Notes: generated from the sequence alone by a model not told the origin. Positions 11,493-57,338 are shown, numbered from the stretch's first letter. The stretch: 64,000 nt of DNA from a virus (IMGVR_UViG_2913167280_000003:1-64000), one strand, 5' to 3'. Numbers and translations: made by a program.

Positions 11493-11509
11493 ATTGCTCT
11501 AATTAATTT
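11493..11509 (+). promoter_or_regulatory. C1 repressor operator-like site upstream of ssb
   Basis: ATTGCTCTAATTAATTT, 16/17 match to the P1 C1 operator consensus ATTGCTCTAATAAATTT. Confidence 0.55.
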
Positions 11510-11528
11510 GTTTTATTGGGTAAGAAAA

Positions 11529-12017
11529 GTGGCACAACGCGGTGTAAACAAAGTCATCCTGATTGGTACCCTGGGGCAAGACCCGGAGATCAGGCATATA
11601 CCAAATGGCGGAGCAGTCGGAAGACTCAGCATCGCAACGAATGAATCATGGCGCGACAAGCAAACGGGCCAACAGAAAGAGCAAACAGAATGGCATAGAG
11701 TCGTTTTGTTCGGGAAACTTGCTGAAATTGCGAGTGAGTATTTACGAAAAGGTTCTCAGGTCTACATCGAAGGGAAACTTAAAACCCGTAAGTGGACAGA
11801 TGACGCCGGTGTAGAACGTTACACGACGGAAATTATCGTCAGCCAGGGCGGAACCATGCAAATGATCGGCGCCCGCCGCGACGATTCACAATCCTCAAAT
11901 AGCTGGGGGCAATCAAACCAACCTCAAAACCACCAGCAATACAGCGGTGGCGGTAAACCTCCGAGCAACGCCAATAACGAACCTCCAATGGACTTTGAAG
12001 ACGATATTCCGTTTTAG
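11529..12017 (+). CDS. ssb: Single-stranded DNA-binding protein
   Basis: N-terminus [21 protein letters not shown] matches the SSB OB-fold start; Gly/Gln-rich linker; acidic C-terminal tail ending DDIPF. Start assigned to GTG 11529. Confidence 0.9.
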
Positions 12018-12291
12018 GAGTTGACTTGTGAGCCATGTGTAAAAAACGACTGAAAGAAAACACCACGGAAGAGGTGGAAAGTGATTAATTTTTACTAGAA
12101 TAAAAAGGGGCCCCAGAGAGCGCCCTGATAATACGAAATTAAAGGGAAATAAATTACAAGAAGTGTAATTCTTTGCCCTCTGAATATGCAATCATGGTTA
12201 GACAAGCAAGATAGGGCGAATTAAAATTAATCAATAGTCACTTTGTTAAGATGCGCAACATCGCTTTAACATTTTATGCTTGTCATGATAT

Positions 12292-12912
12292 TTGCCTGGA
12301 AGCCTCATGAATACATATTCTGATAAAATACACAACCTTATAGATATAGCCAAATTAGCTGTGGCCATGAGGGAACATAGCTATTTTTTCGCACTTCGTC
12401 GAGGAATAGATGTTAATTTTTGTGCTGATTTAAACGGGAGTGGTACACAAGGGATATTCATAAGAAAAAAAAGTTTTAACGCGTATGAGCCAAGTTTTAT
12501 TGAAGTAATTTTTGAACCCACTCATAAAAACGATGATTCATTTCTATACGAAGAGGACCTTACTACCGATCAACGAAAAGACTACGAACCTAGTATTAAC
12601 AGAGGAAAACATCGATTCGTTGCCCAACGTGCTAAACTAAATCTCGACTGGGACAGTAATGAAATCCAACAATGGCGTTTGGATATTGAGCGACTTTCTA
12701 AACCACACAACACTCTTAATGACTGGTTAGAAAATGATTCAGAGATAATGATAATACATCTCTGCGGCGGTTATAGGTTCCGTGAACCAGTGATACTTTC
12801 TCAAAGAGACATTAAACAATATGTAGCTTCAGGATTGACTCTGGAAGACTTAAAAAATCGGCTAAAGTGCTCAATATGTGGTGAGCGAAACGCCAAAATT
12901 AAAGTTTTTTGA
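12292..12912 (+). CDS. Hypothetical protein, low-GC orphan gene
   Basis: 206-aa ORF in a markedly AT-rich segment between ssb and the end of the dar operon; no recognisable motif. Followed by a 10-bp-stem hairpin (12931-12960). Confidence 0.5.
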   Translation: MPGSLMNTYSDKIHNLIDIAKLAVAMREHSYFFALRRGIDVNFCADLNGSGTQGIFIRKKSFNAYEPSFIEVIFEPTHKNDDSFLYEEDLTTDQRKDYEPSINRGKHRFVAQRAKLNLDWDSNEIQQWRLDIERLSKPHNTLNDWLENDSEIMIIHLCGGYRFREPVILSQRDIKQYVASGLTLEDLKNRLKCSICGERNAKIKVF

Positions 12913-13023
12913 TCTACTTTAGTTGGAAATGGCTTGCTTCCATAACCTAAAGCAAGCCACTACACATTTACCTTAAGCACACGATAACATGCCAGAACAG
13001 GTTATTTTTGCACTATCAGGGAG

Positions 13024-53788: not shown

Positions 53789-53805
53789 ATTGCTCTAATA
53801 AATAT
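53789..53805 (+). promoter_or_regulatory. C1 operator-like site upstream of the uhr-hrdC-dmt operon
   Basis: ATTGCTCTAATAAATAT, 16/17 match to the consensus, in the divergent intergenic region. Confidence 0.55.
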
Positions 53806-53876
53806 TGTTTTTTATGTCGTGTTTTCGGTACCATTCAGGCATCGCCCTTCAATGGGCATTAGTTAGGAGTCGTCAG

Positions 53877-54161
53877 ATGCAGATGGAGCTAATAAGCCGC
53901 AAGGAGTTCGATAGTCGGGTAACTAGCGGTGAACTCGACAACTTGCAGGCTATCAAGGTGAAAGAAGGCTTTTGCCTCATTGGGAATCAGAGCGGAACAA
54001 ATCGCGTTTTTATGCTTCGCCGTACGGATCTGAAGCCATTTGTCTGGAAGAACGAAATTGGTCCCAGCTCATACGCTCAAACGAGGGGGTGCCATAACCT
54101 GACCTTCTTCTACAAAGACGAGCTTTCTGTGGTTGATATTCAAGGGTTACAACATGTTTAA
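53877..54161 (+). CDS. Hypothetical protein (Uhr-like position)
   Basis: Start placed at ATG 53877 with AGGAG RBS; overlaps the hrdC start. Confidence 0.4.
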
Positions 54162-55059
54162 GCACTGGAAAAACATTTCTATTTATAAAGTTTCTCGTGA
54201 GGCGGATCTGACCGACTTAGAAGATAAAAATAAAATGATCCTATTCACGCCATGCGGTAGCCAGGATATGGCCAAGTTCGGTTTTGTATCGCCATTTGGT
54301 GATAATTCCGAAGTGATCGCTATGCATGGAAATGGCTTTATCCTTGTTGAAGCAAAGCGCGAAACAAAAATTCTTCCCTCGCCGGTTATCCAGCGAGCTA
54401 TTCAAGAGAAAATTGAAAAACTTGAGCAAGAACAATCGCGTAAACTGAAGAAAACAGAGAAGGACTCCCTGAAAGACGAAGTTCTACATTCTCTTCTGCC
54501 ACGGGCTTTTTCAAAGTTTTCTGTTATCCAGGCGATCTACGACGGTTCAACTAAACGCATCTATATCAATGCCAGCGCGCGGCAGGCAGAGGATATGCTC
54601 GCGCTTATGCGTAAGTCTCTGGGTTCTCTTCCTGTTGTGCCACTAAGTGTTGAAAATCCCATTGAGTTAACGCTGACCGACTGGGTACGTGATGCTAGTG
54701 CTCCACAGGGATTTCAAATGGGGGATGCGGCAGAACTTAAGGCAGTGCTTGAGGATGGCGGTATCGCCCGAGTGAAAAAGCAGGATTTGGGAAGCGATGA
54801 AATTTCCACACACCTGGAAGCTGGCAAGCTCGTCACAAAGTTGGCACTCGACTGGCAGAACCGCATTAAATTTACACTGGACCATAACTTCAGCCTTACC
54901 AGCGTCAAATTTGCGGATGAATTACTTGAGCAGAACTCTGATATTGATAGTGAAGATGTTGCGCAGCGACTGGACGCAGATTTCTTCCTGTTAACCAGTG
55001 AAATTTCGTGCCTGGTTGATGCTCTGGTAAATGCCCTGGGCGGAGAGGCTAAGCAGTGA
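54154..55059 (+). CDS. hrdC: RdgC-like recombination-associated protein
   Basis: About 301 aa from the internal ATG; N-terminus [13 protein letters not shown] resembles the RdgC start; stop overlaps the dmt start. Confidence 0.65.
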
Positions 55060-57320
55060 GAGAGCTGTGCTATGGATCTGTTTGCAGTGGAATTGAAGCC
55101 GCGAGCATTGCCTGGGAACCGTTGGGTATGCGTCCGGCGTGGTTTGCTGAGATCGAGCCTTTTCCATCTGCCGTTCTTGCGCACCGCTGGCCCCATGTCG
55201 CCAACCTTGGCGACATGACAAAACTCGCCCAAAAAGTCCAGGCAGGAGAAATTGAAGCCCCTGATATGCTCGTCGGGGGTACGCCTTGTCAGGCATTCAG
55301 TATCGCGGGCTTACGTGGTGGGCTTGATGATGAGCGCGGCGCGCTAACTTTGAAGTATGTGGAGCTTGCAAATGCAATTGACGACAAACGGGCTGAGTCC
55401 TTCCTCAAACCAGCAGTTATCGTCTGGGAAAATGTCCCAGGAGTCCTGTCATCAGCAGATAACGCGTTCGGATGTTTCCTTGCCGGATTGGCTGGAGAAG
55501 ATGCGCCATTCGAACCTGGTGATCGACCTGAATCACGAAAAAGTAACACGTTCTGGCGGTGGGATGTCAAAACCGGTTGCCATGCTCCAAAGTGGCCGCA
55601 GTGTGGTTGTATTTATGGACCGCAGCGAAAAGTGGCCTGGAGAATCCTTGATGCCCAATACTTCGGAGTGGCACAACGACGCCGACGCGTGTTTGTTGTC
55701 GCAAGTGCTCGAACAGACCTCGATCCCGCAACGGTACTTTTTGAGTTCGAAGGCGTGCGCCGGAATATTGCGCCGAGCCGAAAAAAGAAGGAAATCGCTT
55801 CCGCCATTATTGCAAATGGCGCTGCAATCAGTGGCGAAAGCCTAAATCCATGCCTACACGCTGACATGCCCCCCGGCATGAAATCGACGAAAGCCGTAAA
55901 CGCTTTCAGGATGGCGGCATTTGGGGAATATATTGACGATGAAACCGCATCGACAGTAAAGGCAAGAGACTTTAAAGATGCCACTGACCTTGCCGTTTTT
56001 AGCAGCACAGGAGCAGGTTTTTGGTCAGAAGGGCATGGTACATTGCGGGCACGTGAGCAAGAAAGCCATGAGCATCTTGTTACATTGGCTTTTCCTGAGC
56101 GTATGAGCGGTACACAACATGCTGCAACTAAGAATACTTCACCATCTCTAATGGCTAAAAATCCAACAGCCCTTTGCTATGAAGTAAGAAACGCAGAAGT
56201 AGCTGTCCGCCGTCTTACTCCTGTCGAATGTGAAAGGCTGCAAGGTTTTCCTGATGGGCATACGTTGATCTCGACGGAAAAGCGTAAAAAAGTTAATTCA
56301 GATGAACTGGCATATCTTCGCAATCACTATCCAGATTTAAGCGAAGAAGAGGCCGCGATGCTTGCAGCTGACGGACCGCGTTACAAAGCGATCGGAAATA
56401 GTATGGCAATACCAGTAATGCGCTGGATTGGCGATCGGATTACTAAGGCTGCATGTCGGCAAAAAGAAGGGAGTGAAACAAAAGAGCGAAAGGTTAAACC
56501 AGCGGCAGAATTCGAACGGCCCATATTCAAATGGGCTGGTGGAAAATTTGGTGTTCTGGAACAGATCTTTCGCTATTTGCCAGAAGGGAAGCGCCTGATT
56601 GAACCTTTCGTTGGTGGCGGAGCTGTCTTCATGAATGCCGGATACCAGGAAAATCTGCTAAATGATGTGAATGCTGACCTGATTAACTTTTACAAGACTC
56701 TGCAACGCGAGGCGCATTCACTTATCACTCTGGCACATCGTTTCTTCCTGGACTACAACACCCAGGAGGGATTCCTGGCAGTACGGAATGCGTTTAACAA
56801 ACAAGTCTATGATGATTTACATCGCGCAGCGGCGTTTTTGTTCCTGAACCGACATTGTTTTAATGGATTGACGCGCTACAACCAGGCCGGTGAGTTCAAT
56901 GTCGGGTATGGGAAGTATAAGTCTACGCATTTTCCATTACAGGAGATGGAAGCCTTCCTCGGTGCGGAAGGGCGGTCTGAGTTTGTATGCGGTGATTTTG
57001 CAGCGGTGATTGAAGCTGCCGGAGAAGGAGATGTCATCTTTTGCGATCCGCCGTATGAACCGCTCCCCAATACAGAGGGGTTCACGAACTATTCCGGTCA
57101 TGACTTTAAGTTTGAAGAGCAAAAACGCCTGGTGTCTCTGTTGACGGATGCTCATCGCCGAGGTGCAAAGGTTCTCATTACTAACAGTGGCGCGCCAAAC
57201 ATCAGAGAACTTTATCAGGACAGTGGCTTCAGAGTGGAACCTCTTTTTGCCAGACGTTCTGTGTCTTGTAAGGGAGACACTCGTGGTGTTGCTCATGACG
57301 TTATAGCCATATTGCTCTAA
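55056..57320 (+). CDS. dmt: Bifunctional DNA methyltransferase (C5-cytosine plus Dam-like N6-adenine domains)
   Basis: 754-aa ORF. N-terminal half has C5-MTase PCQ ([12 protein letters not shown]) and ENV ([10 protein letters not shown]) motifs; C-terminal half has Dam-type FKWAGGK and DPPY (FCDPPYEP) motifs. Confidence 0.9.
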
Positions 57321-57338
57321 TAAATTTATTAGTGTAAT
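57311..57338 (+). promoter_or_regulatory. Bipartite C1 operator (overlapping direct and inverted sites) overlapping the dmt stop codon
   Basis: ATTGCTCTAATAAATTT (17/17) at 57311-57327, overlapping an inverted 15/17 match AAATTTATTAGTGTAAT at 57322-57338. Confidence 0.65.

Follow-up and report, generated by a model that had tools for sequence, protein, structure and literature searches.

The repressor C1 of phage P1 binds asymmetric 17-bp operators that are dispersed over the phage genome, and for these operators the consensus ATTGCTCTAATAAATTT and a number of 22 dispersed sites have been stated (PMC8546580). The protein Lxc enters a ternary complex in which C1 is bound more tightly, while Coi and Ant1/2 counteract C1 (PMC8546580 and the notes of the P1 annotation). 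In this work we analyzed the C1-type operators of a 64-kb stretch of viral DNA (IMGVR_UViG_2913167280_000003:1-64000; the whole of this stretch is hereafter called the window) and the transcription unit lying behind one of them, the bivalent operator Obanab at the end of the dmt gene. The reference for all the comparisons with P1 is GenBank AF234172 / NC_005856, where the operators are annotated as protein_bind features ('phage repressor C1'). With an identity to P1 of 95-97% along most of its length, the window can, with high confidence, be regarded as part of a P1-like (Punavirus) plasmid-prophage in which six 17-mers are the orthologues of the P1 operators Ossb, Oc4, OrepL, Odmt and Obanab.

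The C1 operators and their P1 counterparts

The window was searched for ATTGCTCTAATAAATTT allowing up to three mismatches, and 100 dinucleotide-preserving shuffles served as the control. Seven matches were found versus 0.23 expected from the shuffle mean, and none of the 100 shuffles reached seven. Six 17-mers, distributed over five loci, agree with the consensus at 15-17 of the 17 positions. The same sites were scored with a position weight matrix (PWM) derived from the 20 annotated P1 operators, trying two pseudocount settings and comparing the scores with those of shuffled windows; the six strong sites reached 24-28.5 bits, the best score in the shuffled windows being about 19 bits. The original prediction had placed strong operators at these five loci, and both the match counts and the matrix scan bear out the sites and their coordinates.

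The monovalent operators, all on the plus strand and all oriented toward their downstream genes, are Ossb (formerly Op21; 11493-11509, ATTGCTCTAATTAATTT), Oc4 (formerly Op51; 37598-37614, AATGCTCTAATAAATTT), OrepL (formerly Op53; 39261-39277, TTTGCTCTAATAAATTT) and Odmt (formerly Op68; 53789-53805, ATTGCTCTAATAAATAT); each of them matches the consensus at 16/17 positions, and they are letter-identical to P1 21015-21031, 48140-48156, 49810-49826 and 65145-65161, respectively. The fifth locus embeds two arms: Obana (formerly Op72a; 57311-57327, plus strand), which is the perfect consensus ATTGCTCTAATAAATTT (17/17) and corresponds to P1 68667-68683, and the inverted Obanb (formerly Op72b; 57322-57338, minus strand, ATTACACTAATAAATTT, 15/17), corresponding to P1 68678-68694 on the minus strand, both again without a single different letter. 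Each of the six sites thus has, at the orthologous position of P1, an annotated C1 operator with the same letters, in agreement with the idea of the original prediction that they are C1 operators.

The regions flanking the operators align to P1 without gaps (around Ossb, for instance, 133 of 137 nt are identical), with the annotated -35 and -10 hexamers preserved at unchanged offsets; since the flanks align ungapped, the promoter hexamers annotated in P1 can be transferred directly to the window. Ossb is placed between the -10 hexamer of P2ssb (11487-11492) and the -35 hexamer of P1ssb (11498-11503), the latter being overlapped by the operator, and ssb starts at 11529. Oc4, the operator of the immI operon (c4 RNA, icd, ant1/ant2), overlaps the -35 hexamer of P2c4 (37612-37618). 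OrepL covers the -10 hexamer (TCTAAT, 39266-39271) of PkilA, which drives kilA (39347-40147) and repL (40177-41022), and Odmt abuts the -35 hexamer of Pdmt (53805-53810, with the -10 hexamer at 53829-53834) upstream of uhr-hrdC-dmt. Lastly, Obanab overlaps the -35 hexamer of P1ban (57312-57317), the -10 hexamer of the same promoter (57335-57340) and the -10 hexamer of P2ban (57321-57326). Thus, all six sites overlap or adjoin a sigma-70 promoter hexamer of an early or immunity gene (P1/P2ssb, P2c4, PkilA, Pdmt, P1/P2ban); a generic sigma-70 consensus scan by itself does not call Pban. The genes that had been assigned to the operators (ssb, immI c4-icd-ant, kilA-repL and uhr-hrdC-dmt) are those of the AF234172 annotation.

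As for the protein components of the C1 repression system, only lxc (bof), the gene of the C1 co-repressor, is encoded in the window (225-473, minus strand), the genes c1 and coi being located outside it. Its open reading frame (ORF) of 82 amino acids shares 81/82 residues with P1 Lxc, a protein which, according to the P1 annotation, 'enhances binding of C1 to all its operators'. The immunity and lytic genes icd-ant1/ant2 and kilA-repL are present, and Rfam detects the C4 antisense RNA (37796-37881) and the a1b1 target (37675-37727), both downstream of Oc4. The closest complete relative found, plasmid pZBEC21_01 (NZ_CP143628), is 94.5-97.5% identical in the aligned blocks, keeps the full P1 operator set and encodes a C1 protein that is 99.6% identical to that of P1. 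The window shares with the P1 operator set (AF234172) the 17-mers, the genes, the promoter hexamers and the bivalent geometry; likewise, the Punavirus plasmid-prophages P7, RCS47, SJ46 and pZBEC21_01 harbor the same operators at the same loci, and in the P7 record, too, the end of the dam/dmt gene carries two annotated C1 sites.

From what is established for P1, a mechanism can be expected in which C1 would recognize the asymmetric 17-bp site and, once bound to sites overlapping or abutting a -35 or -10 hexamer, would exclude RNA polymerase; promoter occlusion is the mechanism to be expected because each site overlaps a promoter hexamer. The product of lxc (225-473) would stabilize the C1-operator complex and, at Obanab, two repressor molecules sitting on inverted sites with an offset of 11 bp would cover both the overlapping ban promoters. 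In the lysogen, ssb, the antirepressor operon immI, kilA-repL, uhr-hrdC-dmt and the unit behind dmt would in this way be kept off.

The predicted sites belong to the P1 C1-operator set in all the features accessible to in silico testing, and C1 operators in this element are already known biology in a new isolate. Their value is one of annotation, since five textbook P1 loci are re-identified, the immunity type can be given as P1/P7 and the C1-Lxc regulon appears to be intact. Some points, however, weigh against a functional interpretation of the whole set. Conservation in a molecule with an overall identity of 96% is by itself weak functional evidence. The gene c1 lies beyond the 64-kb window, the repressor being represented by the C1 (99.6% identical to that of P1) of the complete close relative; that C1 would bind and repress in this element is inferred from this protein, from the letters and placing of the sites, from their overlap with promoters and from the lxc gene. 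Moreover, the gene that Obanab is named for is absent, and a strong terminator-like hairpin is located 165 nt downstream of Obanab, between the promoter and the genes behind it; because of these two facts, the benefit of C1 control at Obanab is uncertain. A further observation concerns the surroundings of Odmt. The 60 nt upstream of this operator (from 53729 on) match P1 at only about 55% of positions; full identity sets in precisely at the operator's first base.

The bivalent operator Obanab and the replaced ban operon

The two arms of Obanab are inverted with respect to each other, offset by 11 bp and share 6 bp, and the resulting 28-bp double site is identical to the one that the P1 record describes as the 'divalent C1-controlled operator Obanab ... 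controls expression of ban'. The dmt ORF spans positions 55056-57320, and its stop codon TAA (57318-57320) falls inside Obana. Hence the original prediction, which had recognized a bipartite operator of the P1 type overlapping the dmt stop codon, was right on both counts: the pair is identical to Obanab/Op72ab and the TAA lies within its first arm. The same architecture, i.e., inverted 17-mers overlapping by 6 bp, is exhibited by Oc1ab/Op99ab of the P1 c1 gene; however, in Op99ab one of the arms is very degenerate (ACGAAAATAATAGATTT, about 6 bits), whereas both arms of Obanab are strong (28 and 24 bits).

The conservation of the double operator was evaluated in IMG/VR on 27 P1-type contigs that were retrieved via an unrelated motif located downstream. 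It is present in 20 of the 27, the 28 bp being exact in 17 of these 20 and carrying single substitutions in the remaining three. Six copies of the downstream motif in other phage backgrounds are without the operator; similarly, phage D6 aligns to the window only from 57503, i.e., downstream of Obanab, and the operator segment is unmatched, so that D6 presumably does not harbor Obanab. With a different immunity type, the operator is expected to be absent, as is the case in D6 and in the other backgrounds. The exact double operators (17/20), these absences and the junction at Odmt provide some evidence beyond mere descent.

The homology with P1 extends from the operator up to 58022, that is, 26 nt into the P1 tRNA-Asn gene, and resumes at 60403 within gene 5. 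In the interval, the P1 segment 69373-73866 (tRNA-Asn, tRNA-Thr, plp, upl, tciABC, trnI, ban, dbn) is replaced by 2.4 kb of different DNA (58023-60402). A tblastn search with P1 Plp, Upl, TciA, Ban and Dbn gave nothing either in the window or in the 95-kb relative pZBEC21_01. A ban operon in the P1 sense, with ban coding for a DnaB-type helicase and with tRNAs and tciABC downstream, is not present behind Obanab, and a phage devoid of ban must rely on the DnaB of the host. This ban-less layout is shared with pZBEC21_01 at 98.3% identity and is displayed by 8 of the 591 P1-like plasmids matching the region; in the other 583, the operator is followed by a ban-type layout or by a different tRNA array. 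The double site is exact also in the ban-less pZBEC21_01, and the retention of the bivalent operator in a ban-less lineage is a minor new point.

The original prediction had also envisaged a tRNA/HNH/plp block behind the operator and had assumed that C1 regulates it. The HNH gene does exist, but neither an intact tRNA gene (ARAGORN detects none, and the gene is interrupted) nor a homologue of P1 plp was found. When read against P1 tRNA-Asn and tRNA-Thr, the region 57997-58503 (plus strand) appears as a tRNA(UGU)-like gene split by the HNH ORF, with a 5' part at about 57997-58034 and a 3' part at about 58467-58503; it combines an acceptor/D arm of the Asn type, corresponding to the 5' part of P1 tRNA-Asn, with a Thr (UGU) anticodon arm. 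The insert sits after the anticodon stem, in the variable-loop region, and the T arm and the 3' strand of the acceptor follow the stop codon of the ORF. The latter (58049-58468, plus strand, 139 amino acids) codes for an HNH endonuclease (PHROG HNH, 6e-39) with homologues of the FelixO1 type. ARAGORN revealed no tRNA in the whole window, and the Rfam tRNA match at the split gene remains below threshold. The insertion was also considered as a group I intron, an idea that we rejected since there is no Rfam intron match and the insert of about 433 nt is almost entirely taken up by the 420-nt ORF; no uninterrupted copy of the split tRNA was found in viral contigs. At the same spot, related plasmids harbor very different tRNA arrays (Asn, Thr, Arg, Tyr, Ser, Met); one of them exhibits a tRNA-like gene with an insert of about 60 nt in the anticodon region, and another one an Asn/Thr fusion. 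At the place of P1 tciA there is an ORF, possibly coding for a lipoprotein (58672-59088, plus strand), that shows no homology to plp, upl or tciA of P1; no further plus-strand gene follows it before the convergent minus-strand ORFs 59051-59761 and 59815-60147. Pfam and PADLOC gave nothing useful on the ORFs of the replacement.

Concerning the regulation of this block, the idea of a C1 control is not supported, because it rests on homology with the ban operon and the hairpin mentioned above intervenes. This terminator-like structure (57505-57532, plus strand; GCCCATC-TTCG-GGTGGGC followed by a U-run) lies at the end of a stretch annotated as 'dicF-like' in P1 (P1 68791-68892, corresponding to 57435-57536 of the window), where Rfam gives no DicF match. 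The generic sigma-70 scan of 57100-59200 did not reveal an alternative promoter, and the P1 late-promoter motif (AAGTGACTT-N4-TANNNT) does not occur on the plus strand between the operator and 59088; with no other sigma-70-like or P1-late-type promoter up to 59088, Pban is the only candidate promoter of the unit. In this element, Obanab would then drive a non-coding leader of about 700 nt, containing the dicF-like hairpin and a template resembling that of a transfer-messenger RNA (tmRNA), followed by the HNH-interrupted tRNA gene and by one ORF. The fact that the strongest operator of the genome is kept without ban shifts the attention to this conserved non-coding leader.

A tmRNA-like tag template in the leader

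In the P1 annotation, the leader of about 700 nt between Obanab and the tRNA region carries only the label 'dicF-like region'. On the plus strand of the window, positions 57534-57716 can be read as a tmRNA-like coding element, consisting of a PK1-like region, a resume codon GCA, a tag, a post-tag hairpin and a second hairpin. The predicted tag, ANDDLMMVAA* (57593-57625, plus strand), is encoded by UAAAU-GCA AAC GAU GAU CUG AUG AUG GUA GCG GCC UAA; the post-tag hairpin with its pseudoknot partner occupies 57639-57661 and the second hairpin 57673-57710, both on the same strand. A sensitive blastn search with the leader disclosed 274 phage records matching the central portion of about 180 nt (~57534-57727). 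The element is shared by unrelated phages, including Bp4/ECBP1 (Schitoviridae), phiEa2809 (Ackermannviridae), Klebsiella, Salmonella and Stx phages and many prophages, and its upstream neighbours vary from one phage to another; in the listed records of unrelated phages nothing is annotated under the match, apart from one RIIA.

Further copies were collected with a pattern based on the 5' flank alone, leaving the tag unconstrained beyond its first 8 nt (GCAAACGA). All the 128 copies retrieved exhibit a 10-codon frame ending with TAA or TAG. They encode 18 tag peptides, among which ANDDVVLMAA, ANEEMYLAVA and ANDEQFLAVA, and synonymous variants are many, the last Ala codon being GCC, GCG, GCT or GCA. 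The post-tag hairpin covaries (CG 21/UA 16; GC 20/AU 12/CG 4; AU 28/GC 9), and its loop pairs with a downstream tetramer that covaries with it (CCGA/TCGG, GTCG/CGAC, CCAA/TTGG, CCAG/CTGG). A resume codon, an in-frame stop and a coding constraint on the tag frame, as in a tmRNA, are all found here, and both the tag frame and the post-tag pseudoknot show what appear to be signs of selection.

The Rfam models tmRNA_permuted and beta_tmRNA align to the element below threshold, matching the pre-tag region, the tag and the post-tag hairpin; at the gathering score, Rfam leaves the element unmatched. The likeness to the two-piece (permuted) tmRNA of beta- and alphaproteobacteria lies in the resume context UAAAUGC-AAACGA, in the 10-codon tag ending with AA-stop and in the post-tag hairpin. 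However, a two-piece tmRNA possesses a tRNA-like domain (T arm, acceptor stem and CCA), whereas the element of the window is without the corresponding 113-131 model positions. Indeed, a tRNA-like domain (acceptor stem with 3' CCA and T arm, either in one piece or permuted) was not detected, and the Infernal alignments delete the whole domain. ARAGORN finds no tmRNA in the window or in any of the enterobacterial-phage copies, and it does find true permuted tmRNAs in many environmental contigs with the same tag context. Among the acceptor candidates that were considered, i.e., the hairpin 57505-57524, a T-arm-like CTGGTTCGATTAACCAG (57730-57746) and the stems described in the next paragraph, none forms a convincing CCA-ended acceptor according to ARAGORN, Infernal and inspection by eye. 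The possibility that the element is a fragment of the host ssrA gene was discarded as well: matches to the element occur in 661 of 5426 complete E. coli genomes, are mostly plasmid-borne and in no case fall on the chromosomal ssrA. In tmRNA surveys, phage ssrA genes are reported only from mycobacteriophages, from Bacillus phage G and, as the TLD-only case, from DS6A (PMC4131195, PMC11915505), and the tmRNA-like element is absent from these two surveys.

Repeated bipartite 'bracket' stems, long and conserved, are located for example at 57713-57793 and at 58560-58646 (within 58553-58655), with the form CACAAC-AGGTA-AGAGCAUU ... AGUGCUCUU-UCC-GUUGUG and variants of it. These stems enclose T-arm-like hairpins and, in many phages, are found on the flanks of the tmRNA-like element and of the tRNA-array modules; a role as signals for RNA processing is possible.

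A remaining question concerns the reason why Obanab is conserved in prophages without ban. We tentatively suggest, as a possibility that we would not yet rank as the probable one, that the primary cargo of the operator is not ban but the RNA leader, with a C1-repressed tmRNA-type tag template that would lack an attached tRNA-like domain. According to a different explanation, Obanab would be a vestige, inherited together with the rest of the backbone and left with nothing of consequence to regulate after the loss of ban, tciABC and dbn, so that it would survive only through its overlap with the end of dmt and because the deletion is recent. Neither the window nor the complete relative contains a homologue of ban, dbn, tciA, plp or upl, the left arm does overlap the dmt stop codon, and the rarity of the ban-less layout (8/591 P1-like plasmids) fits a recent event. 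Nevertheless, the right arm and the two promoters are located beyond dmt and yet are letter-identical to those of P1 and pZBEC21_01; moreover, the next 700 nt are conserved in P1, in P7 and, from 57503, in D6, and they hold the tag-encoding element with its signs of selection, which implies that a conserved cargo remains directly behind the promoter. On balance, we consider a vestigial Obanab improbable. Coming back to the RNA leader as the cargo, if the tag template works in trans-translation, either with a separate acceptor piece or by another route, it would represent a new way for a phage to reprogramme ribosome rescue on induction. The tmRNA-like element is the only part of the locus that may be new, and it is the item that deserves an investigation of its own.

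Weak sites, mosaic junctions and replaced segments

Besides the strong operators, the original prediction had listed a weak, inverted 13/17 match upstream of a pmgF-like gene, at 42150-42166. A match of this quality does exist, but it is located at 42148-42164 (minus strand, AATGTTCTAATAAACTA, 13/17; 10-14 bits), i.e., 2 nt away, only 4-6 of the 17 positions agreeing at the place that had been indicated, and its score does not rise above the chance level. The window contains eight matches at 13/17, of which this is one, and its score falls within the chance range, the shuffle maxima reaching up to 19 bits. The downstream pmgF-like gene (41500-42096, minus strand, 198 amino acids) resembles PmgF only in its N-terminal part, the first 65 residues being 43% identical. 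In principle, 42148-42164 might be a genuine weak C1 operator controlling this gene, given that it retains the core TCTAATAAA, that the likely ATG (42096) follows 52-68 nt downstream, the site overlapping a possible -10 hexamer TATTAA preceded by TTGTCT (a reading by eye), and that it is identical in phage RCS47. The last point is uninformative because RCS47 is 99% identical over the whole stretch. Since the score of 10-14 bits is below the shuffle maxima, the site has T instead of G at position 4 and T instead of C at position 5, two letters that never occur there in the 20 P1 operators, and the region upstream of pmgF in P1 has neither an operator nor such a site, we regard a genuine operator at this place as very unlikely.

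The fact that weak matches do arise at chance level (eight at 13/17 in the window, shuffles up to 19 bits) is all that would favour reading the whole set as an AT-rich word that recurs fortuitously in a phage genome itself rich in AT, an explanation with practically no probability left, since a chance origin of the six strong sites is ruled out by the shuffle statistics given above (0/100 with seven matches, mean 0.23), by their 24-28.5 bits and by their location exactly at the annotated P1 operator positions. The further weak sites at 7642, 34889, 36375 and 42148 were tried as operators and rejected, all of them falling within the chance range on the PWM. The first of these (7642-7658, ATTGCCCTAATGTATTT, 14/17) lies inside the 5' end of darB and resembles Olpa/Op94 (ATTGCTCTAATGTATTG); it is identical in P1 (17166) and in pZBEC21_01, is not annotated as an operator and has a chance-range score.

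A site missed by the original prediction is a truncated Orlf (formerly Op55), 3 nt after the repL stop codon (41026-41042, plus strand; ATTGCTCTAAT|CTGGAG, aligned with P1 51575-51591). In P1, Orlf/Op55 is intact after the repL stop, whereas the copy of the window is cut to its left 11 nt (41026-41036), the P1 homology stopping inside the operator. Its function is doubtful because it reaches only 5.6 bits on the PWM. Two operators, Odmt and Orlf, coincide with mosaic junctions, which is a minor new point. Beyond the latter junction, from 41026 to 42226, P1 rlfA-rlfB-pmgF is replaced by a toxin-antitoxin module of the hok/sok type (Rfam sok at 41330-41504, 87 bits) and by the pmgF-like gene discussed above.

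Another replaced segment, of about 3.2 kb (34337-37520), takes the place of the P1 superimmunity genes simABC. PADLOC gave no matches on it, and the segment contains a gene for a DUF4760 protein (34481-35374), one for a protein of 394 amino acids (35800-36984, minus strand) carrying an SH3_3 domain at its C terminus and an ORF of 154 amino acids.

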